A stretch of DNA of 35,850 nucleotides from assembly GCA_964425475.1 (NCBI GenBank), contig CAYRMF010000001.1, positions 1 through 35,850 on the forward strand. Reading direction: 5' to 3'. Positions within the stretch are counted from its first letter, which is position 1; the number at the start of each line of letters is the position of its first letter. The notes beneath the pieces are model-generated. The model did not search any database and was not told the DNA's origin. It saw only the letters and a program-made list of their open reading frames with translations. Source of the DNA: an uncultured Candidatus Saccharibacteria bacterium. Lineage in GTDB: Bacteria; Patescibacteriota; Minisyncoccia; Phycocordibacterales; UBA918. Of the stretch, positions 11,920 through 35,435 are shown piece by piece. A program made the translations under genes and the position numbers.

Positions 11920-14091
11920 CTACGTCTCGTACCCTTTTGGTACAACCTCAATCGTCACAGAATCAGATTCAGATCCTGAAGGAGGGATTGGACAGGTAAG
12001 TTTGTAGGTTGTCCGTCCATTAATCGTGACGACAACTGAACCTGTGCTGAAATCTCCGATATTTGCAGTGATGAGATCGCCCGTACCGTTATTGAGTGTG
12101 CACGATGCTTCATTGCCGTTGTTGGTATCCCAGATGAGTGTAGTTGTTCCCCCATCGTTAACCAACTTACGTGTTGCATTTAACTCAGGGATGTAGGTGA
12201 CCGTCACATTGGCTGTTGCAACAAGCACAAAACTAGTGAACAGTGCATTTTTACACATGAGGTCGTAGCGTGTCGGTACATACAGTACTCCTGTTGGTTC
12301 TCCACCTGAAGTAGTGTTGGTGATGCCAGTCCATTTTGCAACTCCAGCTACTTGTACCTCGCAACTTGTAGCGTCGTTGGCTGACCAGGTAATCTTTGAA
12401 GAGCCACCTGAGTCGTATGGTCCAGCAGGTATTGCTGTTATTGTACCCGTCGGTGGTGGAACAACAGTGAGTGTCGCGATTGAGCAATTATCACTTTCAT
12501 TACCTTCATTATTTATTTGACCTCTTGAATCAACACAGTGTTGCACACGAAGTGTTCCAGATTGAGATAGCGTAAACCCTATTGAAGTGTCATCTTGGAA
12601 TCCACCTGGATTAATCGGTACTGTCTTTGTTAAATGAGAACCAATCATGAGTGATGGTGCACAGCCGGCACCCCAACAGTAGGTGAAGTTGTCACTGAAC
12701 TGTGTATTAACGGACGCAGAACCGCTATTAAGTACTCGACCACTGAATGTCACGATATCGCCTTTTTTTAAGGCACCATTTGCATTCGGAATCATGGCTG
12801 AAATAAGGTTTGGTAATGACGAACACGTTGCACCTGCATTTGGTGATCCTGCCCATGTGCCATTTGTACACACGTACGTAGCGCTACCAGTTGTAGGCGC
12901 AGTGCTGTCAGTGATAGAACCGTTTGCTCCACTATTCGTGAGAACGATAGTACCGGTACAGTTATCAGTACCAACAGACCAATTCATTACTCCAGCAGGA
13001 CAACTTGCCGCAATATTCACCGTCGCAGTTTTGATACCGCTCGAGGACCCCTTATACGAACACTCAAGGTTGTAGATTGAATTAATAATTGGTGAGACAT
13101 TGAGCTGATACGAACCAGCGGTAGGTGACTTATTCCCCGACCATGCTCCTGTAGCAATACACGAATCTGCACTTCCCGAAACTACCCACGAAAGTGTCGA
13201 TGTTCCACCAAGATTGATAGTAGTTGGGCTTGCTGAAAGCGTAAGTCCCGGTGCCGGTGCAGCGGTGACAGTCACGACGGCATTCTGGATACCACTCGAT
13301 GCACCACTGTTCCAACATTCAATGCTATAGGTCGCGGTTGACGGTCCAACCGTAACCACTTCTGTGTGAGGTCCTACTCCATATGCCTTCCATCCTGTCC
13401 ATGCTCCAGAGGCCCAACATGAGTCAGCAGTACCGGTAACCGTCCACGTGAGCGTCGATGTGGCTCCTGCATACACTGATGTTGGGTTTGCACCAAAGGT
13501 GAGCGTCGGCGGATTCCCCTTACATGCATTTCCTGTACCCGTCACGGTGCCACCACCATTACCACCAAAACTTATCCAGCCCACCACGTCAGAACCCCAC
13601 GCCCAACCACCCCATGCACAGCCAGAAACTGTAATTCCATAGTTTGAACCTGAAAGACTGACAAAACCATCCCACCCACCTGCATTTGAGGCATTTGCAC
13701 CCATAGGTGCAATCGCACGTGCCCACCCCGTTACGTTTCCTGTGACTTTGTCGAATGTGGGTGGACATGTCCCCGAAGGACATGAGGTGACGTCGCTCGC
13801 ATTGAAGCTTACCCACCCAATGTTTTCACTCCATGCGTATCCCGAGAGAGCACCCGTAGCAGAAACGGTCACTCCGTATGGAGATGTCGCGCAGGTACCG
13901 GTATCGGTACAGTTGAATGAAATCCAACCAATGTTTTCACTCCATGCGTACCCCGAGAGATTGTCTGTGGCACTTGCTTCAACTTGTGTTGGACTGAAAA
14001 AATGAAAATAAAAAAGACTTGTCAACACTATTGCGAAGAAAGCTAAAAAAACTAATACCGCGGGTACATAATTTTTTTGAGAATTTTCCAT
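11920..14091 (-). CDS. Secreted or anchored Cys-rich surface protein with GYAWSENIGW repeats and Ig-like repeats (723 aa)
   Basis: N-terminal signal anchor VPAVLVFLAFFAIVLTSLFYF. Repeats LSGYAWSENIGWISFN, LSGYAWSENIGWVSFN and GWAWGSDVVGWISFG. Tandem modules of the form ..STLTWTVTGTADSCWASGAWTGWK / ..STLSWVVSGSADSCIATGAWSGNK, followed by KITWSANDATSCEV and TLIWDTNNGNEASCTL. Confidence 0.7.
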   Translation of the reverse strand: MENSQKNYVPAVLVFLAFFAIVLTSLFYFHFFSPTQVEASATDNLSGYAWSENIGWISFNCTDTGTCATSPYGVTVSATGALSGYAWSENIGWVSFNASDVTSCPSGTCPPTFDKVTGNVTGWARAIAPMGANASNAGGWDGFVSLSGSNYGITVSGCAWGGWAWGSDVVGWISFGGNGGGTVTGTGNACKGNPPTLTFGANPTSVYAGATSTLTWTVTGTADSCWASGAWTGWKAYGVGPHTEVVTVGPSTATYSIECWNSGASSGIQNAVVTVTAAPAPGLTLSASPTTINLGGTSTLSWVVSGSADSCIATGAWSGNKSPTAGSYQLNVSPIINSIYNLECSYKGSSSGIKTATVNIAASCPAGVMNWSVGTDNCTGTIVLTNSGANGSITDSTAPTTGSATYVCTNGTWAGSPNAGATCSSLPNLISAMIPNANGALKKGDIVTFSGRVLNSGSASVNTQFSDNFTYCWGAGCAPSLMIGSHLTKTVPINPGGFQDDTSIGFTLSQSGTLRVQHCVDSRGQINNEGNESDNCSIATLTVVPPPTGTITAIPAGPYDSGGSSKITWSANDATSCEVQVAGVAKWTGITNTTSGGEPTGVLYVPTRYDLMCKNALFTSFVLVATANVTVTYIPELNATRKLVNDGGTTTLIWDTNNGNEASCTLNNGTGDLITANIGDFSTGSVVVTINGRTTYKLTCPIPPSGSESDSVTIEVVPKGYET

Positions 14092-18489: not shown

Positions 18490-19047
18490 CTACTTCAAAA
18501 ATGGCTCAAGTGAGGTTCGGATTTCGTTTTCCTGTAGTACCCCGCGCACATGGAGCACAATCGCACCATCTGCGTCATACAGTATTGTCTCGGGCATAGC
18601 ATAACCCGAAACAGCTTTGTAGAATGTATCGCCAGGATCTACAAGAAACAGAGCATCGCGTCCAATACCATACGTTGCTATGTATGCTTTAATGACTTCC
18701 CTGTCCTCCATGCGATTGATTGCAAGGACGGTAAGTGCTTCACCGTACTCTCTTTGGAGCGTATTCATAAACACAAGTTCGTCTTTAGAGAATGGCATCC
18801 ATGTTGCCCACGAGTTGATGAGGAGGGGCTTCCCCTTAAAATCCTCCAGGGTGACCGTGTTTCCCTCTAAATCTGTATACGCGAGCATCGGGTCTGGTTC
18901 AATCGCTTTCAAATCACCGTGAAGGCCTGAAAAGGGGCTCATGGGTGCAAAGCGCAGGAAAACACCAACCGCCATACATGCAATAACTATGAAAAGTATT
19001 GCGAGTGTTTTTGTATGTTCGCGCGCAATTGCGAGTACCTTTTGCAT
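18490..19047 (-). CDS. Membrane-anchored TlpA/ResA-like thioredoxin-fold protein without the CxxC active site
   Basis: N-terminal TM, then the redoxin layout ..FKGKPLLINSWATW-MPFS-KDELVFMNTL. Canonical family members have WATWCxxC at this position. The only Cys in the protein lies in the TM helix. Confidence 0.7.
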   Translation of the reverse strand: MQKVLAIAREHTKTLAILFIVIACMAVGVFLRFAPMSPFSGLHGDLKAIEPDPMLAYTDLEGNTVTLEDFKGKPLLINSWATWMPFSKDELVFMNTLQREYGEALTVLAINRMEDREVIKAYIATYGIGRDALFLVDPGDTFYKAVSGYAMPETILYDADGAIVLHVRGVLQENEIRTSLEPFLK

Positions 19048-19050
19048 AAT

Positions 19051-19530
19051 TTATCCTTTGATAAATAGTTCAAATGATTCGGGTGTTTCACCTTCCGCTG
19101 CTGGAATAAGATTGAGCTCAACGGCACGACCCTCGAGCGTTGCTTTAATAACTGCATTTTCACTTGCATCAAAGCTCACCATGAATCGTTGTGGTGTGGT
19201 TGTTTGTTCACACGTATCAGCATGATTGACGACATCAAAATCAATGTAGACTGTTTCTGGCATGGACTCTTGTATGCGTGTTGACCAATTGAGCAAATCG
19301 CATGGGGTCGGCATGAGTATTTCACCCGCTACTGTGTGAGTCGGTGGAATAAAGAAATGCTTCGCATCGATGCGTGTAATACTCGCATATGGACCGTCGA
19401 CAGCGAGTGGTTCCGGTTCCGTCGTGGGTGCTTCTGCTATTTCTGCTTTCTTGAGGTACGCAAATCCAAACATCCCGACAACAATGAGTGCAAGGATGCC
19501 AAATGCGACGAACATGTGTTTGTGTTCCAT
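19051..19530 (-). CDS. Hypothetical membrane-anchored protein (159 aa, two extracytoplasmic Cys)
   Basis: N-terminal TM FVAFGILALIVVGMFGFAYL. No family recognised. The stop is 3 nt from the start of the thioredoxin-like gene. Confidence 0.6.
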   Translation of the reverse strand: MEHKHMFVAFGILALIVVGMFGFAYLKKAEIAEAPTTEPEPLAVDGPYASITRIDAKHFFIPPTHTVAGEILMPTPCDLLNWSTRIQESMPETVYIDFDVVNHADTCEQTTTPQRFMVSFDASENAVIKATLEGRAVELNLIPAAEGETPESFELFIKG

Positions 19531-19578: not shown

Positions 19579-20889
19579 CTATTCTACAAGAGTATCGAGA
19601 TCCGTATCATTGAGTACCGTTGAGGCATTATCCTTCCCTTCAATAGTGACCTCGTATGCTCTATTCTCAGTTGCATTCTGAATATACAACGATATAGCAA
19701 CAAACATCAGGATAAGTGAAGCGAGCGAGATGAAGAACCATTTATACTGTGTTACAAAATACCAAGCAGTTGCAAGTGTACTCTGGGACCTTTCTCCTGA
19801 AGTGAGCTGACTACGGAGATCAAGAACCCCTTTCTGAAGTGGTGCGGTTGCACGCGCATACGTGCGTTGCATTCTGAGTGGCTTGGCGTCATTTGTCTGC
19901 TCTTCTTCACGAGTAGCTCCACGTACCTCTACTCCAGCAAGTTCGAGCATGCGACGCACATATGCACGCACCATAAAGACAATAAGCCCAACAAAAACTG
20001 CGATGCTGAGTATTGTAATGAGCGTCCACTTCACCGGAATAACCCAAAAGTACGTTACGGCGTTTGTATCCGAGGAATTTTTCATATTACGCTCATCCCC
20101 GTAGGCGAGTGTCGCGACCGCTTTGTATCTACCAATGTCGGTGAAGCGGAAATCACTCTTCCATGAAAAAGAAAAGTCACGAATTGTCCCGGGGAGCACG
20201 TTGCCGAAGTGTGTTTGATAGTTTACCGGAATATTTCCACGCTCGGTGCCCCACATGTTTGTGATGACAATGTTCCCACGAGGAATGAGGTGCACATTCC
20301 CCTTATTTTCAAAACGAAGTGAAAACGATGCATCAGGCGTATCGAGGAATGAATCATTGACGCGAAACTCGCGAATTGTTCCCACTTCATGTACATCACC
20401 CTCAACGCGCAAAAACAAGAGTGACGTAACTGCTTGTGAAGTACGTACCGCGATTTCATTCGTTTCTTTTGGTGGTTCTGTAGAGATGAGGACCGCAGCA
20501 TAGTGTCCACCCGGTGAAGCATTTTGTGGTATTTCAGCAAAAAATTGAATGTCCTGTGTTTGCTCGGGTGGAATGGTAAAGGGGCCCTGTGGCATCTGTA
20601 TCCACTCACCAAATGTTGTGTTCTCTCCACCACTTTCAGCAAGCGTAAGAAATTTCCCCCTACCCTCCTCTCCAACAGCTTGAAAGTTGACCACCTCGGC
20701 GTACACAGTGAGTGGGTACGGGTTTCCATTGACCACCTTAATGCTACTCTGCCAAATATCACCAGGCATGACTGAAAGCTGAAAAAGTGGTGGTGTGACA
20801 CTGAGTACCTGCTTCTCGTCCGCATGCGCATATCCAGTGATGAAAAGCGCGTACGTAAAGACTGCAACAAAGAATATACTGTATTTCAT
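19579..20889 (-). CDS. DUF916/DUF3324-like cell-surface protein, paralogue 2 (436 aa; signal peptide, two beta domains, two TM segments)
   Basis: Signal peptide MKYSIFFVAVFTYALFITGYAHA. LSVTPPLFQLSVMPGDIWQSSIKVVNGNPYPLTVYAEV. W-I-x..PPEQTQDIQFFAEIPQNASPGGHYAAVLIS. Second domain ..FENKGNVHLIPRGNIVITN..GRYKAVATLAYG. ATGA overlap with the upstream gene. Confidence 0.6.
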   Translation of the reverse strand: MKYSIFFVAVFTYALFITGYAHADEKQVLSVTPPLFQLSVMPGDIWQSSIKVVNGNPYPLTVYAEVVNFQAVGEEGRGKFLTLAESGGENTTFGEWIQMPQGPFTIPPEQTQDIQFFAEIPQNASPGGHYAAVLISTEPPKETNEIAVRTSQAVTSLLFLRVEGDVHEVGTIREFRVNDSFLDTPDASFSLRFENKGNVHLIPRGNIVITNMWGTERGNIPVNYQTHFGNVLPGTIRDFSFSWKSDFRFTDIGRYKAVATLAYGDERNMKNSSDTNAVTYFWVIPVKWTLITILSIAVFVGLIVFMVRAYVRRMLELAGVEVRGATREEEQTNDAKPLRMQRTYARATAPLQKGVLDLRSQLTSGERSQSTLATAWYFVTQYKWFFISLASLILMFVAISLYIQNATENRAYEVTIEGKDNASTVLNDTDLDTLVE

Positions 20890-21920
20890 GATGGTTTGGT
20901 GAGATGAAGATCGTGACCTTTTGATGTACTGTGTCCATCACGTACGTGCACCGTGAGATGTTCGTGGTCATCATCCTGCATATCATCATCGAAGTAGCGA
21001 CGGTGGACATACCATGCACAGAGAGAAACAAAAATCACAAAACACGAAAGCATTATGATGAGCATGCGGAGCGGAAATATGTAAAAGAAACTGGTGTCTT
21101 GGAGCGAGGCACGTTGTGTCGAACCATACTCAACGGTGAGAAATGCTTTATATTTGCCAAATTTTCCTTCCGCAGGTATAGAGGCCGTGAAAGTGTGCTC
21201 TGCTTTGGGTTGAATACTTACGTTTTCAGTATTGACAGGAAGTGCTCCGACTTCCTTCCCCGTACTATCATAGAGAATAATCTCACCTGTTGGTGTCATA
21301 ACCTCATCACCCGGATTAGTAAACGTAAATGCTGCCGCTTGGTTGTCGCTACTCGTCACAAATCTCTCAACGATGAATTTTGAGAGCTTGAGAAATTCTC
21401 TGTTCTCTTCAGCAATCGTGATGGTAATGACCGTTCCGGGTGCTTGTCCATTTGCAACCTGCCGTTCTGCTTCATCGCGATTGCCACCATAACCAAAACC
21501 GATGAATGCGTGATAGGTGTTGGGTACTGGGGAGGGGTTCATGCGTATGGTAAGCGGAATCGTTTTCGACGTACCCGGTTGCAAATCAATTCCGAGACGA
21601 CTTATTTCAATCCATGAAGTCACCGACTTCGTACGGTCGCTCTCGACCGCTTGCTTGAATGCTTCGATGGTCCCTCCCTCTTTGAGGGATATTTCATTGA
21701 CACTTGGATACACCGTTACGGGGGTTTCGCCCGTGTTTGTGATTGTTATGTCTTTTGTAATGATGTCACGAGCGACTGCCTTGGTATCGATAACCATAGG
21801 CGAAACGGTATATGATATTGCAAAAACAAACCCCTTTGGATAAAAAAGGGAAACGCAGAGAAATGCAAACACTAAAAATTTAAAAGATTGGAACTGAAAC
21901 ATAGCGAATACGTGCTTCAT
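20886..21920 (-). CDS. DUF916/DUF3324-like cell-surface protein, paralogue 1 (about 344 aa; signal peptide, two beta domains, TM, acidic/His tail)
   Basis: The start is set at ATG 21920 (MKHVFAMFQFQSFKFLVFAFLCVSLFYPKGFVFA). Alternatives are 21932 and 21902, and all of them overlap the 3' end of the giant gene. YTVSPMVIDTKAVARDIITKDITITNTGETPVTVYPSV. SWIEISRLGIDLQPGTSKTIPLTI. Second domain FTFTNPGDEVMTPTGEIILYD..GKYKAFLTVEYG. Confidence 0.6.
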   Translation of the reverse strand: MKHVFAMFQFQSFKFLVFAFLCVSLFYPKGFVFAISYTVSPMVIDTKAVARDIITKDITITNTGETPVTVYPSVNEISLKEGGTIEAFKQAVESDRTKSVTSWIEISRLGIDLQPGTSKTIPLTIRMNPSPVPNTYHAFIGFGYGGNRDEAERQVANGQAPGTVITITIAEENREFLKLSKFIVERFVTSSDNQAAAFTFTNPGDEVMTPTGEIILYDSTGKEVGALPVNTENVSIQPKAEHTFTASIPAEGKFGKYKAFLTVEYGSTQRASLQDTSFFYIFPLRMLIIMLSCFVIFVSLCAWYVHRRYFDDDMQDDDHEHLTVHVRDGHSTSKGHDLHLTKPS

Positions 21921-24900
21921 ATAAGCCGGCATCTTGTAATGAACGAATAAACAACCGGTACACGATATCGGTCGTATCACTGACCGTAGGTTGTGAACTA
22001 TATGATACCTCATCTAGGGTCGATGTGCTCACACGCGCGTACGTGTCGATGGCAGAAAAACGTGTTGAGTCACCATTCAGCGTATCATCTCCAGTATGGT
22101 ATCCAAAACAGCTTTGTGCACCCACATCGCACCCGGAAGCCCAAGAAATGGGGGATGCATTCGTTCCTGTTACTGGTTTCATGTACGCACCATTGGTGCT
22201 CATCAAATCTCCATCCATGACCATAAATAGCTGATACCCCTGTGTGCCGTTTGTATCAATCGTAAGACGGTGTCCACCCTCACGCATCTGGTCGGCCACG
22301 AGCGTACCGAATGGAAGTGACGTTGGCGTGGTGTTGATATCGAGCGTTACACCCTCGATGACGGTCGATGAAGCGATGCCCGCCATGGTGAAGTTGAGGT
22401 GGGCACCCTCCGTCACCAATGATGGGTATGATTCGCTTGTATTTGTTGGTACGGGAATATTTTGCACAATATCAAACAATCTAAAGTAGTAGACGCGGTT
22501 GACGCGCGGGCCTGCTGACTGAATGGTAAACTCGTACTCAGCTGAGACGGTGTTATTGTGTCGATATCCCGTGAGTGCGCTCGGCGATTCGTTGTGTGTT
22601 CCACAGCCACTTCCCACACCAGCGACACACGATTCGGCATCAGAGAGTGTCACGGTAGAAATTTTTTCGTTATCGACTCCCCCACCATTTGCGTAGCACC
22701 ACGTTGAGGTGGCAAGGCACGTGCTCGTTGCGGTGACATCGAAAGCTTGTGTGAACGCTGGTGACTCTGAGTACTGCAGTTTGAATCGGACATCATCTCG
22801 TGACATGTTTTCGGTTTCTTTCACGGTCACGCGGAGTTTGAGCGCTTGGGTGTTTGCAATATCAACCGGTGCAACATTCTCAACGGCGAGCGTCGTCGTG
22901 GGAGTTTCGTCAATCTCATTATCATACCAACGCCAATTTTGTGTCTTTGGTGTAAAACTTGAGGTGCGTAACTGCGGATACTGTGCGTAGGTATCGAGTG
23001 GTGTATTGTCTGCCTCAACCATTCTGAAGCAGTAGAATGTTTCTCCCATGGCACCGTTCTGCTCGACAATCCAATCGTACTCAATATCGTCATCAACCGA
23101 GACCGCACTCTCATTCGCCTCGGTGTCATTCTGCTCCTCGAGCGTACCTAAGATATCAGACACAGAGAGTTTGAGTTCAGAGAGCGTCGTGCCGTCTGTC
23201 GTCGCTGTTGCGTTATAGCCACGCCAAATGGAACTCGATGCACTATTTCCCACCATCCGCCAGTCAGTTTCGGGAATAGCACTACACGAACTCACCATCG
23301 GACCATATTGGAGACGGAACGCTCTGACTCCCGCGGGGAAGGTTGCATTTTTTGCTTGAATCGACATGCGCATACGAATTCGCTCATTGCCGCCGAGTGG
23401 TTCATCTGCACCGGTGAGCACCGAATTTTCGCCTAGGTCTACTCCCCCCACGGGCCACGGGTCAGTGGGGGTGAGCTCATTATTATCGACATAGAATCGA
23501 TAGTAATTCTGTGTGAGTGCAAGACCAGCCGTTGGCCACTCCACAATTTCAGTCCTGAAGGTGAAGGTCGAACCAATATTACTTCTCCATATCTCATACG
23601 CGGTCGATGAGGCAATTGTGATGCCGGCGAGCGCTCGGGGAAATGTGGTATCAGCAACGGATGACCGTGCATTCGTAAAGATAGATGCGTTCGTGAGGTC
23701 ACTGAGCGTTTTTCCAACAGGAATGCTCAGCGTGAGTGGTGCTGTACCACCACTGAGCCACCCGCTTGATTTTGTCACCACCATAGCACCGTCTGTGGTC
23801 TGTGTGTTTTCAATAATCCACGCAACGGAGGTTTGACCGGATGGTGTTGTCGCACCCGTTTCAAGGTAGTAGGAAACGTACCCAATACTGGAAAGCCACA
23901 CCTCAGCTCCAAATTCATCGGTACCGTTGAGACCGGTAGTATTTCTTTTCTGGGTGTGTATGAACGTACGCGTGAGACTGCTCAGTGCAGAAATCGCTTC
24001 AGTCTCAGTAACTCCCGCAGTCGTATAGGTGTGCTGACTTCGTTGAATATTCCAGTTTGAGCCCGTAAACTCAACGACTGCATAGCTCACTTGGACTGCG
24101 TCCGAACCCGAAACACCTCTCCGAAAAATTGGTGCATTGAGAGATGCGTGCCACTCAGATGTTGAGAGGCCGGATTCATAATTTGTTGATGCTGTATCGG
24201 GATTCTGTTGTCCCGTGATGAATACCACCACTTTTGCATCATCGACAACATTCGAACGTACTGTACCTGTTGCACTCGTTGATCCGGTCCCATATCGGTG
24301 GAAGGTTTGTCCGCGGACAATCATTTCATTATCTCCTCCTGGGATGCCAATGTACTCTACAATCTCCCAACTCACTCGGGTCGTGCTCGAGATACCCGTA
24401 CGGGCAATGGTGACCGAGGTCATGATGTTGGAAGGATTTACGATATACGCAGTTGTGTTCGTAGCATTTTGAGCGAGGACGTTGCCTGTGTTATGCCCTG
24501 CTCCCGTATGTCCTATGTTCGTGATACGGATAAATGCACTCGTCGATGCAGAGGGGGTAATGTAGTCGACACCGGCAACAAGTGTCGTTGAGGTACTACT
24601 CGTCGCTATCGTCCTTGTGCCACGCTGTATCTCAAAATCTCTCTCCGGAGAAGTTGTGAGCTCGGGGTACTTGCTATACACATCGAGAGGAACGCCAGCT
24701 CCCGAGAGACGGAAACAGTATGTGGTGTTGTACCCGGCGCTCGTCGTCTGCTTGAGAGAAAATTCTGTTTCAATAAACTGCGTTGTGGTAAGTGCTGTAG
24801 ACGCAACCTGTGAAGAGGTGTCCTTTACTGCGCTGTTTGGGGTAAGGAATGTTGTGTTCTCATCGGTGACACCTCCGGCATTCACCGCGATATTGGTGGT

Positions 24901-29474: not shown

Positions 29475-31211
29475 TTACATGCGCGATTCTTCCTCAAGCA
29501 CATCTTCAAGTGGCACATATGGCTCAACTACCAAGTCCTCGATGTGTGCGGTGTCGGTAGATGTCGCGGTATTCTCAAATGATGGCACGAGCACATCAAC
29601 AGTTCCCGCGGGTGTACTTGTCGCTTCAGTCACGACAGGTTCCTCGCTTGGCGTCTCGAAGGATGGAATAACGATGTCGCCATCGTCGATACCATTGTCA
29701 GTTGTCGTTCCCACATCGTCATTTTCATCTGAATCGACTTTCTGTTTTGGTTGCGTTGTTGGTGACACGAGTGCGCGCTCTTCACCTGTTTGATCAGGGT
29801 CGGGAATCTCTTCGGGAACCGGGGTTGGCTTCGATGCGAGATCGACGATCTCACCGCTCTTGAGGTCGTATCCGCGCGTTTCGATATCGCCGGTCTCCAT
29901 TTTTGCATCATACACGAGCACAAAGCGCGGATTCTCAATTGAGCCACCTCCTGAATCGGAAACAGTATCGATGAGTCCAGTGCGAAGGTCATACACCTTC
30001 ACACGCCACACATCTCCTTCGAAGGATTGCCACACGACATGCGTTCCGTTCACGCTCGGTGCAATATCGTGAGTGGTATTATCGGTGAGCATGGTCACTT
30101 TCTCGTCTTCCAACATAAATATCTCCCAGTCACTTCCCACCCACCCCTGCCACACGACCGTGTCGCCAAAGACGCTCGGTTGCATGTTGTTGAAACTATC
30201 GTACGTCAGCTGTTTCTCACTCTCCTCATCAAAGTCGTACTGGATAATTTGGAAACGTCCGTCTATGAGACGGTGCCACACTGCAGTGTTGGAAACCTCA
30301 TCGAAGTACGGAGCGTCGTCATCAGCTTGATTATTTGTGAGTGGTGTCAACTCGCTATTCTTTTCAAGATATATTTCCTTGTCACCTTCTGCGTCGAGTG
30401 CTGAAAAGATTCTATCGGCGTTGAGCACCTGTGGTGCCTCGGTGGGGGTAGCGCAATAGAATGTGCCGTCGCCCACGGTGGTACACTCGTTTTTAGAGAA
30501 TGAAAATCTATTTTCATCGTTCGTGACAACGCTCACCACATTCTGAGAGGTGGTGAGGGGTGTGGCTGTCGCCTCTTCGGTGACACCATCAGGAAGAGTC
30601 ACTTCTGCTTCCACCTCATTCACCACTTCAGGGTCGACCGGGTCATCAGTCACAATCGCACTCCCCTCTGTCGTTGTTGCATCCGTCAAAGGAGCAGTAG
30701 GTGTATCACCACTTTCATCAATCGGTGTGTCGGCAGTGCCAGATGCCAAATCTTCTGCGATTACAGTATCAGCTATGGTATCGAAGGATGTTTCTAACGG
30801 TGTCGCCTCGGGCTCATCCACAGCTTGGAGTGGAATGTCTGAGGGTGCAGAATTGTTGACAGGCGCAGGTTCGATTGCAGGCGGTTGTGCATCTGGAGTG
30901 GTAATGTCTATGGTCGAATCGCTCTCAGGATTTTCAGGAAGAGCCGTATTGGGTTCAGTGCCATTCGTGGATTCAGGTGTGCTTTCTGTGGAAATTTCAT
31001 CGGCAAAAACGGGAGCAAGTGGCATACACACAAGCACAAAAAGCAAACACAACGAAAGAGCGCCGTAGACACGATACATCAAACCCCGCATGGACGTTCG
31101 CGAGTTTCCATTTATAGAATGCTGTTTCTTCATACCGTTTGCACAGATACGACAATATTCGGCTTTTGAGCCGTGTCGTACGTGAAGGCACGCATTGTCC
31201 ACATGACACAT
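29475..31211 (-). CDS. Membrane protein (578 aa): Cys/His-rich N-terminus, TM, acidic Thr/Pro/Glu linker, beta-propeller-like repeats, acidic tail
   Basis: The start is set at ATG 31211 because AAGAGGTG lies 6 nt upstream. The ORF track begins at TTG 31262, and ATG 31091 is also possible. N-terminus MCHVDNACLHVRHGSKAEYCRICANG. TM GALSLCLLFVLVCMPLAPVF. Repeats of the type P.V.G..VVWQ....W.I..YD. Confidence 0.65.
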   Translation of the reverse strand: MCHVDNACLHVRHGSKAEYCRICANGMKKQHSINGNSRTSMRGLMYRVYGALSLCLLFVLVCMPLAPVFADEISTESTPESTNGTEPNTALPENPESDSTIDITTPDAQPPAIEPAPVNNSAPSDIPLQAVDEPEATPLETSFDTIADTVIAEDLASGTADTPIDESGDTPTAPLTDATTTEGSAIVTDDPVDPEVVNEVEAEVTLPDGVTEEATATPLTTSQNVVSVVTNDENRFSFSKNECTTVGDGTFYCATPTEAPQVLNADRIFSALDAEGDKEIYLEKNSELTPLTNNQADDDAPYFDEVSNTAVWHRLIDGRFQIIQYDFDEESEKQLTYDSFNNMQPSVFGDTVVWQGWVGSDWEIFMLEDEKVTMLTDNTTHDIAPSVNGTHVVWQSFEGDVWRVKVYDLRTGLIDTVSDSGGGSIENPRFVLVYDAKMETGDIETRGYDLKSGEIVDLASKPTPVPEEIPDPDQTGEERALVSPTTQPKQKVDSDENDDVGTTTDNGIDDGDIVIPSFETPSEEPVVTEATSTPAGTVDVLVPSFENTATSTDTAHIEDLVVEPYVPLEDVLEEESRM

Positions 31212-31274
31212 TACGCACCTCTTAGCTAATGATAGCAAGGAGTGACAAGTATCCCTACACAATTATCAACAGTG

Positions 31275-32021
31275 CTACTTGCGGAAAGAGTCAGCGAGTA
31301 GAATTGAAAAGTCTTTAAACGTCATACGACCATCCCCATCAAAATCAAACAGTGCATTTCTCGTAAACCACGCTGACATAAATACACTGATGTCGGAAAG
31401 ATCGACATCCCCATCTCCATCAGTATCCGTCACAATAGAGACCGTCGCTTCGCCCGAGATAACCCCATCATCACCCAAAACAGCTATCACTGTCTGATTA
31501 TCAGCGAGCGATGGCGTAACACTCACTTCAGTACCTTTTCCATCTCCAGCAACAAGTGATGAGCCACTGACAAAAATACGTGCAGTACCGGCTTCTATTG
31601 CCCTCACTTTAATACGCGCGATGGTATGCTCGCCTATGAAACCTTTTCGAAATGTTCCACCACGAAGGTATATCTTCCCCGCTTTTGCAGAGGGTTCTTC
31701 AGTCCATAGAGTAATCACTGAGGTGCCGGTATCAATACCGAGCACTTGTATGGTGTCTTCAGGGTACCCAATCACCAAGTCAACGGCATTGATTGACACA
31801 TGCGCAGTGACATCGACATGTATATAAAACTCTTGATCTTGAGTCACCGTCTGTGCACTTGTACTTATGGTTACATAGGATGCATTTTCCCCAATAATCG
31901 ATGCAAGACCAGCTAAAAGTGCAGCAACAATAACAGCAGGAAACGCGTACTTGACTGTCGTGTACTGTGTTTCACTGTGTGAAGGAAAAAGTGCTTTCCA
32001 AAGTATTTTAAACATACTCAC
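31275..32021 (-). CDS. Membrane-anchored cohesin-like protein with C-terminal dockerin-like EF-hand pair (248 aa)
   Basis: TM FPAVIVAALLAGLASII. Cohesin-like module ..EFYIHVDVTAHVSINAVDLVIGYPEDTIQVLGIDTGTSVITLWTEEPS..GKIYLRGG..IARIKVRAIEAGTARIF. C-terminus DTDGDGDVDLSDISVFMSAWF..FDFDGDGRMTFKDFSILL. The start is GTG 32021, which overlaps the upstream stop as GTGA, or ATG 32015. Confidence 0.65.
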   Translation of the reverse strand: MSMFKILWKALFPSHSETQYTTVKYAFPAVIVAALLAGLASIIGENASYVTISTSAQTVTQDQEFYIHVDVTAHVSINAVDLVIGYPEDTIQVLGIDTGTSVITLWTEEPSAKAGKIYLRGGTFRKGFIGEHTIARIKVRAIEAGTARIFVSGSSLVAGDGKGTEVSVTPSLADNQTVIAVLGDDGVISGEATVSIVTDTDGDGDVDLSDISVFMSAWFTRNALFDFDGDGRMTFKDFSILLADSFRK

Positions 32022-32677
32022 TGAACTAATTGCGAGCGCAACTCATCAATACGCTGATTGTGCACCACAAGCAATTCATTGATTTCTTGTGCCTGTTGCA
32101 CCAGTTGCGTGACATGCTCACTTTGAGATGATTCACCGGTAATGAGTGAAGCAATAATTTCGTCCTGAATACGTGCTTGATCACCAAGTCCGGTACTCCG
32201 TCCCTTTTCAAGTTCAATAAGTGTATTCCACTCGGTGCGCTGGAATGAGTCAAAGTCTTCTCCACTGAGGAGAGCAAGTGTGTCAAGAAGTGTATTGTAG
32301 TGGACAATTTCACGCTCAAGTTTTGCAACCATGAGTGCTTTACGTTCTGCATAAAACATACCGCAACTCTCGGAAAGTGTCTGCACTGCGATGAGCTCTC
32401 GCATTGAAAGAGCTCCGAGATTGCCGAGGAGATTCTCATACTCATCACGACGTGGACAATCACGAACAATGCTCTGAATAATACTATCGGCACCATTACT
32501 GTCAGTTATCTCGGCCAATTGTGCCAAGTAGGATCTTTCTTCTTCAAGTTGCGTACGAAGAAGTGTTTCAAGTGCTCGCTGATTGTGGTGGACGTACCAC
32601 GTACCAATCACAAAAACAAGCGCGACGGAGAAGAGGACAAATGCGATGTAGAGGTGTTTTTCAAGTGAGTTTTTCAT
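32018..32677 (-). CDS. Membrane-anchored coiled-coil protein (219 aa), unknown function
   Basis: N-terminal TM LYIAFVLFSVALVFVIGTWYV, then a helical, heptad-like sequence rich in E/L/Q/R. It is tightly packed between cohesin-like genes. Confidence 0.6.
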   Translation of the reverse strand: MKNSLEKHLYIAFVLFSVALVFVIGTWYVHHNQRALETLLRTQLEEERSYLAQLAEITDSNGADSIIQSIVRDCPRRDEYENLLGNLGALSMRELIAVQTLSESCGMFYAERKALMVAKLEREIVHYNTLLDTLALLSGEDFDSFQRTEWNTLIELEKGRSTGLGDQARIQDEIIASLITGESSQSEHVTQLVQQAQEINELLVVHNQRIDELRSQLVQ

Positions 32678-32683
32678 ACAGTA

Positions 32684-34414
32684 TTATGAAACAACGCGTT
32701 CAATGTCTTCAATCTCCTTCCGAATCTTTCCCTGTGCCGACTTCAGATCATTTTCTATACGCTCAATGAGCACAAGTTCTGCTTTTGTGAGCTTACCCTT
32801 GCGTGATTCCTTGAGCTCACCAACATTCACATCAAGATTTTTAATAATCTCCGCAAATTCACGTGAGAGTCGGTCTTCGGCTTCAAATGTTTCTTTGCGA
32901 ACAGTGCGCTTCCAGCGCGCGAGACGGTGCCAGAGGTACCACGTGCCAAAGATGAGTACAATGAGGAGTGACACAATAGGGACAACTACCGAGAGAAAAT
33001 TGATGACGACCGTGCCCGCAGCAACGTACCCAGGAACTTCGGCAATTATTTTAATTGTGTCTGACTTTTCACTGACACTTCCGAATGCATCTCGTGCAAC
33101 GGCAGAAATAGTATACACACCCGTGTCGAAGGGAGTATCAGGAATGAAGGTGAACTCACCCTCTGCGTTACTCTGTACCACATAAGGATTACCTGTCCCC
33201 TCCTCCGCGACACTGAGGATAGTATTATCACTCGCGCGCACCACTTCAATTGTTACTGTTGCATTCGGACGTGTTTTCCCTTTAATGGCAGGAATAACTT
33301 CTGTGTTGATGCGTGTCGGATACTCAGTGAAGATAGGTTTCTCGAATGCATCAATGGTGAGCGAATAGCTCGCAACTGCTGTGTTACCCGCACTATCAAA
33401 CGCCTCAACTGAGATAGTGTGATAGCCCGGCAAGAGTGATTCGAGTGTGTACTGTTGTTTTTGTTCGGTATCAGTGAAGACGATCGGTTCCTTACCATCA
33501 ATTTGAATTTTATACTCGATAATTGGTGATGTGTCATCGAATGCAAATATGAGTACCTTTGCAGGATTCGTTGCGTCAAGGGGTTTTTCGGTGATAGTGA
33601 AGTTTTTTGGACCCTCCGTATCAACGGCGAGTTTGTACTCAGCAATCCGTCCCCATCCATCAGCATTTTTGAATTGCAAGTGGAAGTATGAAATTCCTTC
33701 GGGCAAATCCTCAAGTGTCTTCTTCGTAAGTGCTTCTTCATACACTTTTGTCGGTACGGTGCCACTTGTCCGATCGAGGAGCATTCGTACGGCAGTTACG
33801 CCTGCAGGCACTGTCCAACTCAGTGTTGCGTTTTTCTGCTTGTACCATGCAGTTTGATCAGGGTGTGTACTCGATGTTATTTTTGGTGCTTGCGGAGTGT
33901 TTGCAGGCGGTATGTACTCAGGTGCTGGAGTCTCCCCTTTCGCAGCAATCGTGAAGGAGCCACTGCCCATAGAGGTGAGCACATTGGTGCCCATACCGTC
34001 AGCAGCGAGCACGGAACCGCTTGAAAAAGTGACTTTTGGTGTCCCCGCTCCAAGCGGTCTGAAGGTTATGGAAACAATCGTTCCAGCTCCACCCTTATAC
34101 CCCGTGGGTGAACCACCACCGAATGAAACCGTCCCTGCGCTGTTTGAAAAAGTTGGCTCTTCTGTCCAAAGATTAAAAATGGAGCTTGCGCGTGTGACAC
34201 TGACCACCTGAAGTTCGCGCGTATTGAACGTAAGTTTGCCATCCGCCGCATTCACTGATTTCCCTTCGGTATTGAGCACAACCGATACACTGAACGGTGT
34301 TCCTGCTGTATACACTCCGGTGCTTGGACTTACCTTGAGCGTCGCAGCATCAGCACTATGCGCAACGAAAAAAAGAAACAGTCCGATTACCCACAATGTT
34401 TTGTTACTATTCAT
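32684..34414 (-). CDS. Cohesin-like surface protein with Ig-like repeats, C-terminal TM and cytoplasmic coiled-coil tail (576 aa)
   Basis: The start is set at ATG 34414 (MNSNKTLWVIGLFLFFVAHSADA / ATLKVSP). The longer ORF-track version overlaps the upstream gene. Cohesin-like ATLKVSPSTGVYTAGTPFSVSVVLNTEGKSVNAADGKLTFNTRELQVVSV..IFNLWTEEPTFSNSAGTVSFGGG..VTFSSGSVLAADGMGTNVLT. Also THPDQTAWY..GISYFHLQFKNADGW. TM VVPIVSLLIVLIFGTWYLW. Confidence 0.7.
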   Translation of the reverse strand: MNSNKTLWVIGLFLFFVAHSADAATLKVSPSTGVYTAGTPFSVSVVLNTEGKSVNAADGKLTFNTRELQVVSVTRASSIFNLWTEEPTFSNSAGTVSFGGGSPTGYKGGAGTIVSITFRPLGAGTPKVTFSSGSVLAADGMGTNVLTSMGSGSFTIAAKGETPAPEYIPPANTPQAPKITSSTHPDQTAWYKQKNATLSWTVPAGVTAVRMLLDRTSGTVPTKVYEEALTKKTLEDLPEGISYFHLQFKNADGWGRIAEYKLAVDTEGPKNFTITEKPLDATNPAKVLIFAFDDTSPIIEYKIQIDGKEPIVFTDTEQKQQYTLESLLPGYHTISVEAFDSAGNTAVASYSLTIDAFEKPIFTEYPTRINTEVIPAIKGKTRPNATVTIEVVRASDNTILSVAEEGTGNPYVVQSNAEGEFTFIPDTPFDTGVYTISAVARDAFGSVSEKSDTIKIIAEVPGYVAAGTVVINFLSVVVPIVSLLIVLIFGTWYLWHRLARWKRTVRKETFEAEDRLSREFAEIIKNLDVNVGELKESRKGKLTKAELVLIERIENDLKSAQGKIRKEIEDIERVVS

Positions 34415-34418
34415 ATAT

Positions 34419-35435
34419 TTATTGTTCTTTTGAATTTTCGTTTCCTTCCAATCGTTTCTTTCGTTTCCAAAGTACAAAGAACACCAGTACCACGATACAT
34501 AGCAATACCCCACCGAGCACACTGATCAGTATCAGCATATCGGATGAGATGCTTCTGAGTGCGGTATCGGGAACCAAAGTCACAATACGAACATTTCCAG
34601 CTTTATCGAGTGCTTTTACACGGATGGTGCTGTTCAGTGTTTGGTCTTTGAGTACGTATGGACTTTCTGTCTGTACCCATGGAGCATCGGCACGTCCCCA
34701 CTTAAATGCATTAAATTCAGAAAATGGTTCCTCCATAACCTCATAGTGATCGATACCGGACTGTTTATCACTTGCGTTAAATACGATGAAATACTCACCA
34801 CTGAATGCATAATCGTCCTTCGTAAGCGTGATAGCAAAATCAGAGGGAAGCTCTGTATCACTTTGTACACTCTCACGCCATGCATCTTGTATGCTCTGGC
34901 CTACAGTATCATCGAGCGTGATGATTGCATCCCGGAGTGTTAACGGTGCTGGTGTACCGTAGCCATCATGGAGCAGTACCTGTGAAACTTCATCAAGCCA
35001 TACATGTGGGGTCTTGTTTGTATTTGCACCTCCAATACTTAACCCCGGTGACTTAAACACAATTTGCAAAATAACATTCGTGAGTGATGGATCACCTGCG
35101 ATACGTCCACAGTATCCGCCAGGAACACCGCCAGCAAAATGTATTGTTCGGTTTACTTCATCAATAGTCGGGTCTTCTACCCAGATATTGAGAATAGAAT
35201 TACCTCGTGAAATATCAACCGCAATAATGCTCTCATCATAGTGAATGAGCGCATCGAAAGTATTCACACATTCTCCCTCATCAGTATCAATACGCAAATC
35301 AACCACAACACTATCTCCGTGATGAATATTTACTGCACTGGGATCAAAATACAGTGTTGCCGCATGAGTGTCTGGTACACCAAAAGAGAATGCGCATACA
35401 GAGAAAAAACAAAACGCAAGAAATGTACGTATCAT
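34419..35435 (-). CDS. Cohesin-like surface protein with C-terminal TM anchor (338 aa)
   Basis: Signal peptide MIRTFLAFCFFSVCAFSFGVPDTHA / ATLYFDP. Cohesin-like ..GDSVVVDLRIDTDEGECVNTFDALIHYDESIIAVDISRGNSILNIWVEDPTIDEVNRTIHFAGGVPGG. C-terminal TM LILISVLGGVLLCIVVLVFFVLW followed by a basic tail. Confidence 0.7.
   Translation of the reverse strand: MIRTFLAFCFFSVCAFSFGVPDTHAATLYFDPSAVNIHHGDSVVVDLRIDTDEGECVNTFDALIHYDESIIAVDISRGNSILNIWVEDPTIDEVNRTIHFAGGVPGGYCGRIAGDPSLTNVILQIVFKSPGLSIGGANTNKTPHVWLDEVSQVLLHDGYGTPAPLTLRDAIITLDDTVGQSIQDAWRESVQSDTELPSDFAITLTKDDYAFSGEYFIVFNASDKQSGIDHYEVMEEPFSEFNAFKWGRADAPWVQTESPYVLKDQTLNSTIRVKALDKAGNVRIVTLVPDTALRSISSDMLILISVLGGVLLCIVVLVFFVLWKRKKRLEGNENSKEQ

Follow-up and report, generated by a model that had tools for sequence, protein, structure and literature searches.

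All genes of the region considered here, which lies in a 35,850-nucleotide (nt) stretch of contig CAYRMF010000001.1 (the whole analyzed stretch is called the window below), are encoded on the minus strand. They include the gene of a giant secreted surface protein (hereafter, the giant), followed by overlapping genes for two paralogous membrane proteins of 344 and 436 amino acids (aa), denoted P344 and P436 and collectively called helpers (Table 1). A reading of this DNA made from the sequence alone (the sequence-only reading) had likened the arrangement to the WxL/Csc loci of Firmicutes, with a WxL-like domain at the C-terminus of the giant and DUF916 and DUF3324 domains in its two partners. 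The evidence assembled below points instead to a surface display module of the kind described as Pam in bacteria of the candidate phyla radiation (CPR), in which the giant probably combines the properties of an adhesin and a pilin.

Table 1. Features of the giant-helper locus and their coordinates in the window
Feature	Coordinates	Strand	Remark
Giant secreted surface protein, 2461 aa	21880..29265	-	from the list of open reading frames and the translation
P344, 344 aa	20886..21920	-	open frame extends to 22013
P436, 436 aa	19579..20889	-	paralog of P344
Putative minimal pilin core of the giant, aa 2099-2461	21883..22971	-	
Conserved linker SYPSLVTEGA, aa 2279-2288 of the giant	22402..22431	-	
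C-terminal domain of the giant, aa 2314-2461	21883..22326	-	
p159, small conserved protein	19051..19530	-	context only
TlpA/ResA-type thiol-disulfide oxidoreductase, membrane-anchored	18490..19047	-	context only

The gene of the giant ends with a TAA codon at 21882-21880. Three ATG codons, at 21932, 21920 and 21902, are candidate starts of P344 and would yield overlaps with the giant of 53, 41 and 23 nt, respectively. The start at 21920, and with it the 41-nt overlap, is favored because a database protein with 99% identity to P344 (P0144) consists of 344 aa and 359 close homologs are 330-355 aa long. The stop codon of P344 and the start codon of P436 share the tetranucleotide ATGA at 20889-20886 (4-nt overlap). 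Both overlaps had been recognized in the sequence-only reading (as 23-53 nt and ATGA) and are borne out. They show that the genes form an operon and permit translational coupling, but nothing beyond that; the fixed stoichiometry that had also been read from them is speculation.

The last 176 aa of the giant (21880-22410) contain the strings LNFTMAGIASSTVIEGVTLDINTTPTSLPFGTL, HRLTIDTNGTQGYQLFMVMDGDL and YRLFIRSL..GLYEARIRYVSVPIF, on which the assignment of a WxL domain had been based, and the C-terminal domain carries an invariant pair of cysteines (CDVGAQSC) and the motifs CFGYHT.DDTL and AG.YE..I.Y..VP.F. No Pfam family, the WxL family PF13731 included, matches this segment at E<=1. Comparison with NCBIfam revealed similarity of aa 2314-2461 to NF058581 (CPR_Pam_pilin_C), the model of the Pam pilin C-domain, over its full length (positions 3-148 of 148; E = 5.3e-8; 33.1 bits, with the curated cut-off at 55 bits), and 14 of 15 relatives match the same model, with the best E-value of 3.3e-10. 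An AlphaFold2 model of the last 200 residues (predicted local distance difference test score, pLDDT, 87.3) was used as the query for a Foldseek search. The best hit is the TasA fiber (PDB 8aur; E = 1.2e-3), and more than half of the 50 best hits (26) are chaperone-usher pilus subunits of the Fim, Pap, Caf and CFA systems (E = 0.01-0.1), FimA, FimG, FimF, the pilin domain of PapG, PapH and Caf1 among them. The predicted fold of the C-terminal domain resembles that of donor-strand pilins. Sequence and profile searches retrieved nothing for this domain from a copy of the PDB without PamA or PamB entries.

The Pam system was described in a recent preprint (Troman et al., bioRxiv 10.64898/2026.03.03.709456) that reports the structures of two filaments from Ca. 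Mycosynbacter amalyticus, a CPR bacterium. In these pili, which have a rise of ~51 Å, the linker of one subunit, a conserved segment, fills the groove of its neighbor. According to the same preprint, PamA and PamB are the pilins; PamC and PamD, which resemble FimC/PapD and have two domains plus a C-terminal membrane helix, are the proposed membrane-anchored chaperones; and PamR, an RbmA-like two-domain protein that also possesses a membrane helix, is the proposed anchor. The system is most prevalent in Saccharimonadia and Microgenomatia, and neither WxL nor DUF916 is mentioned (10.64898/2026.03.03.709456).

The C-terminal part of the giant appears, from its sequence, to follow the plan of the Pam pilins: a conserved linker connects a beta-sandwich domain to a C-terminal immunoglobulin (Ig)-like domain, and cysteine pairs are present. 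In 79 sequences of class 1, one of two classes of pilin-type proteins in these loci, conservation of the penultimate beta-sandwich and of the linker (SYPSLVTEGA) is as high as that of the C-terminal domain; within the linker, P, S, T and A are invariant (alignment A1). By its likeness to the linker of PamA and PamB, this segment is a candidate for the donated strand. Five small class-1 proteins of 437-463 aa (in loci L082, L084, L092, L093 and L094), encoded at the position that the giant occupies in the window, show 45-48% identity to aa 2099-2461 of the giant and align with it from their residue ~75-110 to their end. Thus, the alignments indicate that the giant is a complete small pilin with ~2050 residues inserted after the signal peptide.

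The remainder of the giant begins with a signal-like segment, followed by a pair of BNR/sialidase-like repeats of ~400 aa each (aa 38-435 and 438-841) and two repeats of ~330 aa (aa 853-1182 and 1207-1535), all delineated by BLAST comparison of segments; the match to the Pfam family BNR_2 (PF13088) is weak. Additional beta-sandwich modules lie between the repeats and the pilin core, and the N-terminal extension also includes further copies of a module resembling the pilin N-domain. In most related loci, an ortholog of the giant, usually of 1800-2500 aa, is found in the same position.

The two genes that follow are indeed paralogs, as the sequence-only reading had proposed: P344 and P436 are 21% identical over 279 aa (BLASTP, E = 5e-17), and the alignment of the two family profiles with hhalign has a probability of 99.4% (E = 1e-21). 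The AlphaFold2 model of P344 (mean pLDDT 87.8) consists of an N-terminal, signal-like helix (residues 2-25), one beta-sandwich domain at residues 37-169, another at 178-281 and a C-terminal transmembrane (TM) helix (residues 284-310), in accord with the signal peptide, two beta domains and TM segments described in that reading. P436 starts with a signal-like helix too and shares the ectodomain and the TM helix, beyond which it has a cytoplasmic loop of conserved sequence, a further hydrophobic segment (its second) predicted near residue 385 and a short tail with conserved motifs (alignment A6). In several P436 homologs of ~545 aa (P0110, P0114, P0130, P0137 and P0142), the second hydrophobic segment is followed by a C-terminal LytR_C domain (PF13399), a hint at contact between the P436 tail and the cell envelope.

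When the P344 model was compared with the PDB using Foldseek, the best hit was 9i25_C, the WxLIP of Enterococcus faecium locus A bound to a long WxL protein (E = 8.8e-11); RbmA (2.6e-10), another WxLIP entry and the fimbrial chaperone CfaA (8e-9) come next. Many unrelated proteins with tandem Ig-like domains obtain similar scores, so that the fold alone discriminates poorly and sequence profiles are the better guide. The combined P344/P436 family profile aligns with that of seven Firmicute WxLIP proteins with a probability of 97.4% (hhalign, E = 1.1e-11). When signal peptides and membrane helices are removed, the ectodomains alone still align over 212 columns (92.7%, E = 4e-7), and domain 1 aligns with DUF916 (95.4%, E = 1.9e-8). 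Among the controls, a reversed profile gave E = 0.36, and cross-domain and reversed comparisons together gave E = 0.04-0.4. P344 itself matches PF06030 (DUF916) with E = 2.5e-4 and 21.5 bits (gathering score 27.3), and this is the most common Pfam match of the helper family, found in 60 of 90 members (best E = 2.4e-5), in each case under the gathering score. In a search of PDB sequences with the family profile, EfmWxLIP1 accounts for the top two hits, which are weak (E = 0.3). Given these results and the controls, the profile comparisons indicate that the helpers are remote homologs of WxLIP, at least in domain 1, without being members of the Pfam families. The DUF916 half of the earlier assignment thus survives as remote homology, whereas DUF3324 was never detected by sequence: PF11797 matches none of the 90 members, and the hhalign comparison of domain 2 with DUF3324 is not significant (E = 0.016, probability 2.9%). 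The second beta-sandwich is nevertheless present and collinear with that of WxLIP in the full-length alignment. Kinship of the helpers with PapD/FimC was considered as well but is not supported at the sequence level, the hhalign comparison with FimC yielding E = 0.22 and PapD_N and PapD_C (PF00345 and PF02753) being absent from the 25 families listed for the 90 members.

Considering this homology, it could be argued that the locus is, after all, a true WxL/Csc cluster, in which a divergent WxL domain of the giant would bind peptidoglycan non-covalently and the paralogs, as CscA/WxLIP proteins, would stabilize the attachment to the wall. WxLIP is the best match of the paralogs both in structure and by profile. 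P344 falls in the WxLIP range of about 320-380 aa and, like WxLIP (PF06030, PF11797; PDB 9i25, 9i1y), has two Ig-like domains between a signal peptide and a C-terminal TM helix. The overall logic that the sequence-only reading had perceived, a large surface protein with a C-terminal docking domain accompanied by a TM-anchored partner with two Ig-like domains, is shared by the two kinds of clusters. Both are also predicted to rely on a partner strand that completes a beta-sandwich upon binding: a strand of WxLIP is predicted to enter a gap in the WxL beta-sandwich (PMC10599100, Hassan et al. 2023), which is mechanistically the same idea as donor-strand complementation by a chaperone. Moreover, the order of short motifs (FG; h-x-h-x-D/T-x-x-G-x-x-G-aromatic; a terminal Y-x-x-x-h-x-aromatic strand) looks the same by eye in alignments A4 (WxL) and A7 (pilin domain), a likeness without statistical support.

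The docking domain itself, however, is not a WxL domain by any of the methods applied. None of 55 related domains matches PF13731 at E<=10. Comparison by hhalign, in local and global modes and with reversed controls, of several alignments of the pilin domain (A3 and its trimmed form, classes 1 and 2, a merged set and A7) with 16 WxL domains from seven clusters on plasmids of Enterococcus, Lactococcus and Lactiplantibacillus (alignment A4) gave probabilities of 0.7-3.7% and E-values of 0.01-0.09. A reversed WxL profile scored alike (E = 0.016). Only the last strand is aligned; in favor of the WxL reading, the sole local match keeps the C-terminal strands of both domains in register. No WxL chain is among the 50 best Foldseek hits listed for the C-terminal domain (all with E<=0.1), even though 9i25 is in the library. 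The W-x-L pair is missing, the aligned positions reading G-Y-Q-L and R-Y-V-S (family consensus GYQ(V) and Y-I-x-V-P). The identification of the C-terminal domain as WxL is rejected on the Pfam and hhalign results. Furthermore, the definition of a WxL cluster calls for two or more WxL proteins, whereas the window encodes a single protein with a docking domain and neither a small WxL protein nor an LPXTG protein. There are two helper paralogs where WxL clusters have one WxLIP, the host belongs to the CPR rather than to Lactobacillales or Bacillales, and it is a CPR-specific pilin model that matches the domain. We regard a true WxL/Csc cluster as quite improbable.

The helpers belong to a large family. 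P436 has more than 1537 homologs with at least 50% identity, and the joint profile of P344 and P436 recovered 11,295 clusters (at 50% identity) from a representative library; the 150 strongest matches of this search were listed, the tail of the family, with possible Firmicute WxLIP proteins, lying beyond them. A relative of P436 is encoded by 145 GTDB species representatives, with labels such as Kaiserbacteria, Paceibacteria, Nomurabacteria, Jorgensenbacteria and Parcubacteria; the nearest representative contig, CAZNWG010000002.1, has 93.8% DNA identity to the window. Many of the GTDB representative contigs that carry the locus (among L016-L095) are labeled 'uncultured Candidatus Saccharibacteria bacterium' (binchicken TPA assemblies), and a few are labeled Acidimicrobiales, Patiriisocius or Azotimanducaceae. 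Such labels are probably generic or wrong, or else the contigs are mis-binned.

We compared the window with 88 related loci from Paceibacteria. The C-terminal domain, both paralogs and their order are conserved beyond chance, the succession of the C-terminal-domain protein, P344 and P436 being found in about 80 of the 88. The complete order, with the pilin-domain protein followed by P344-like, P436-like, p159 and TlpA-like redoxin genes, is found in 59 loci. In twelve others, p159 is replaced by one or two PamB-sized, pilin-like genes together with a third helper paralog; that extra pilin genes come with an extra helper mirrors the inventory of the pam operon. The products of these pilin-like genes, 385-420 aa long, contain a signal peptide, an N-domain and the same C-terminal domain (hhalign probability 99.9% to class 1). 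Such genes are located at L071:11771-14330 and L072:11820-14379, and also in L001, L002, L081, L082, L084, L089, L093, L094 and L095; the mature N-terminus of these proteins is conserved (AA.LT..SDTLSDSD), and their linker reads VVVTASVNTTFTF. Neither these pilin-like genes nor the third helper paralog is present in the window.

In three loci (L007:7496-8983, from a Paceibacterota metagenome-assembled genome, and L008 and L023, from two other assemblies), the gene preceding the P344-like gene encodes only 496 aa, with a cytoplasmic N-terminus of the UmuD/LexA-type S24 peptidase family (NCBIfam E = 2.5e-26) abruptly joined to the last ~380 residues of a giant. This fusion looks like a remnant of a giant gene after deletion or recombination, with the helper genes intact. 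In the metagenome contig L001 (8657-11144), genes for a 23S rRNA-intervening-sequence protein and a PDDEXK_3 nuclease, small and selfish-looking, are inserted within the module, a gene for an NYN domain protein lies upstream, and the giant is apparently split into parts of 1920 and 246 aa.

Conserved synteny could, in principle, mean little here, with P344 and P436 being generic tandem-Ig envelope proteins that happen to lie beside a giant in a syntenic region, without forming a functional unit with it. Indeed, gene order is preserved throughout the region in Paceibacteria, the genes for TGT, UvrB and an FKBP-type isomerase included, and numerous unrelated tandem-Ig proteins reach Foldseek E-values close to those of the best matches. 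However, the overlaps (41 nt and ATGA) and the adjacency of the genes are kept in nearly every locus, a third paralog appears where extra pilin genes do, and the helpers are homologous by profile to a family that is known to bind a docking domain. We consider chance neighborhood very improbable, far more so than a WxL/Csc cluster.

Given the match to NF058581, the predicted donor-strand fold, the pilin core, the architecture of the helpers and their homology to WxLIP, the gene order and the overlaps, the best explanation of the locus, with a probability of roughly 0.65, is that it encodes a Pam-like donor-strand surface display module, with a giant adhesin-pilin, in CPR Patescibacteria (Paceibacteria, Kaiserbacteria-like). 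As in Pam, the helpers consist of two beta-sandwiches and a C-terminal TM helix and are encoded in the operon of the pilin gene, the host is a monoderm CPR bacterium, the neighboring proteins scanned include no usher, and related loci exist that encompass two classes of pilins and three helper paralogs. P344 is accordingly, by architecture, a candidate membrane-anchored chaperone or anchor comparable to PamC, PamD or PamR.

In the tentative model that corresponds to this reading, the giant would be exported by Sec. Its last 363 residues would form the pilin core, with a C-terminal Ig-like, pilin-type domain that leaves a groove open, and the preceding ~2050 residues, with their sialidase-like propellers and repeated beta-sandwiches, would be the adhesive or enzymatic payload. 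P344 and P436, co-translated from overlapping genes, would stay in the cytoplasmic membrane by virtue of their C-terminal helices, and one or both would insert a strand or a hairpin of the DUF916-like domain 1 into the groove of the pilin domain, stabilizing it. The pilin domain may then be passed to the donor strand of another subunit, resulting in fiber growth, as proposed for PamC and PamD; alternatively, it may be held at the membrane, as proposed for WxLIP-WxL and for PamR. The roles of chaperone and anchor may fall to P344 and P436 in either order.

The second outcome, taken alone, amounts to a rival explanation, namely that no polymerization takes place and that a strand of P344, P436 or p159 permanently complements the pilin domain, a single giant adhesin thus being tethered to the cytoplasmic membrane. 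When hidden Markov models of both pilin classes were compared with all open reading frames in six frames, no second pilin gene was found in the window; the same is true of the 59 loci with a similar layout, and static anchoring is therefore a serious rival. In addition, both partners are membrane-anchored, the WxLIP-WxL precedent is a stable complex (9i25; PMC10599100), and a payload of 2050 residues per subunit would crowd a filament with a rise of ~51 Å. Against static anchoring, the linker, which is the donated strand in the Pam pilins, is strongly conserved in the giant; homologs of the giant share operons with PamB-sized pilins (L071, L072); and the small class-1 orthologs resemble ordinary shaft pilins. 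We consider static anchoring alone unlikely, although not to the degree of a WxL/Csc cluster, and prefer the Pam-like module, in which either outcome may occur.

Several observations weigh against the Pam-like reading. Every NF058581 score (16-35 bits) lies under the curated cut-off of 55, which would make the domain no more than a remote relative. The Foldseek matches of the C-terminal domain are weak (E-values of 1e-3 to 0.1, TM-scores of about 0.3-0.5), and for P344, unrelated tandem-Ig proteins, such as transglutaminase beta-barrel domains, score nearly as high as WxLIP. The interaction between the giant and the helpers is putative, and the proposed equivalence of P344 and P436 to PamC, PamD or PamR draws on architecture and genomic context. 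With no second pilin in the window, a fiber would require self-polymerization of the giant or a pilin encoded elsewhere. Finally, even housekeeping genes such as those for TGT and UvrB are syntenic here, and gene order beyond the overlapping trio carries little functional weight.

The likeness to Pam comes from the NF058581 model, domain architecture and gene context, and there are clear differences: the sub-threshold score (33 versus 55 bits); the lineage, here Paceibacteria rather than Saccharimonadia or Microgenomatia; the ~2050-residue N-terminal payload of the pilin; and, in the window, a single pilin-type gene, no PamT-like or clearly PamR-like protein and no ATP-synthase neighborhood. 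As in the chaperone-usher systems (Fim, Pap, CFA/I, Caf1), the C-terminal domain resembles pilin domains that accept a donor strand; the giant, whose pilin domain stands at the C-terminus behind a payload, recalls the two-domain tip adhesins FimH and PapG; and the helper model matches the CFA/I chaperone CfaA (see above). However, there is no outer membrane in the present case, the helpers are membrane-anchored, and the pilin fold matches are weak (E = 0.01-0.1). TasA of Bacillus subtilis, the best single Foldseek match, likewise forms a fiber by donor-strand complementation in a monoderm. The TM-score is about 0.3, with 10% identity and no sequence relation found, and TasA needs no two-domain membrane chaperone. 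The system resembles both Pam and WxL/WxLIP in its presumed working but falls short of each on at least one count, and it is best filed with the Pam kind, as a variant from another CPR class with a giant payload and WxLIP-related helpers. The kinship of these helpers with Firmicute WxLIP is undescribed in the searchable literature.

Downstream of P436, in most loci directly, lies the gene for p159, which has an N-terminal TM segment, a pair of cysteines and the consensus ITRIDAKHF...MPTPCDLL...CAQV.T.QRF...ELNLIPA..GETP.DFELFIKG. It matches no Pfam or NCBIfam family, and candidate relationships to a CscD-like small LPXTG protein, a WxL domain or a pilin domain were rejected, hhalign detecting no relation. 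The next gene, with a conserved position, encodes an oxidoreductase that matches the NCBIfam models of ResA, TlpA and DsbE (E = 4e-17 to 8e-10); its counterparts in orthologous loci match Pfam Redoxin. Its presence next door is in keeping with the invariant cysteine pairs, and a TlpA-like oxidoreductase is a plausible helper for those of the pilin core, a functional link that we only infer.

Several other genes of the window, likewise on the minus strand, are worth noting. Directly upstream of the giant (29475-31262), in a position kept in 54 related loci, a protein of ~540-595 aa is encoded that combines an acidic N-terminal half rich in Thr, Pro and Glu with TolB-like beta-propeller repeats (TIGR04275, E = 2e-13). 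Farther upstream (31275-35435) are surface proteins, one of which contains a cohesin domain (PF00963, E = 4e-6) and Big_13 (32684-34522), whereas another has a dockerin/EF-hand-like C-terminus (31275-32021); together, they suggest a surface assembly of the cohesin-dockerin type in a CPR genome. Relatives of the genes of this region are present in about 40 related loci. On the other side of the trio (11920-14091) is the gene of a secreted protein of 723 aa with N-terminal tandem repeats LSGYAWSENIGW(I/V)SF followed by cysteine-containing Ig-like modules, for which no Pfam or NCBIfam match was found.

The homology between the helpers and WxLIP raises a broader evolutionary possibility, which we put forward tentatively and as less probable than not: the WxL/WxLIP clusters and the Pam pili might be two branches of one ancient donor-strand system of monoderms, in which the Paceibacteria pilin became an adhesin-pilin of 2000-2500 residues, displayed as a bottle-brush fiber or singly. 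If so, the hallmark of this ancient system would be a membrane-anchored two-domain chaperone or anchor of the DUF916 type; the WxL system would gain a mechanism, strand complementation and possibly strand exchange; and nearly every Paceibacteria genome would gain a defined host-contact organelle. Paceibacteria (Parcubacteria) rank with the most abundant bacteria that have not been cultured, and to our knowledge, their mode of attachment to the host is unknown. The module is near-universal in this lineage. As it places a giant and variable protein with propellers on a pilin-type foot, it is a prime candidate for the host-contact apparatus. With the present findings, the Pam system, which was described in 2026, would reach into a further CPR class and would include a subunit of new architecture, and the homology of the helpers to WxLIP links two bodies of literature that do not cite each other. 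This link suggests a testable mechanism for the WxL proteins, which are virulence and colonization factors of enterococci, listeriae and lactobacilli.

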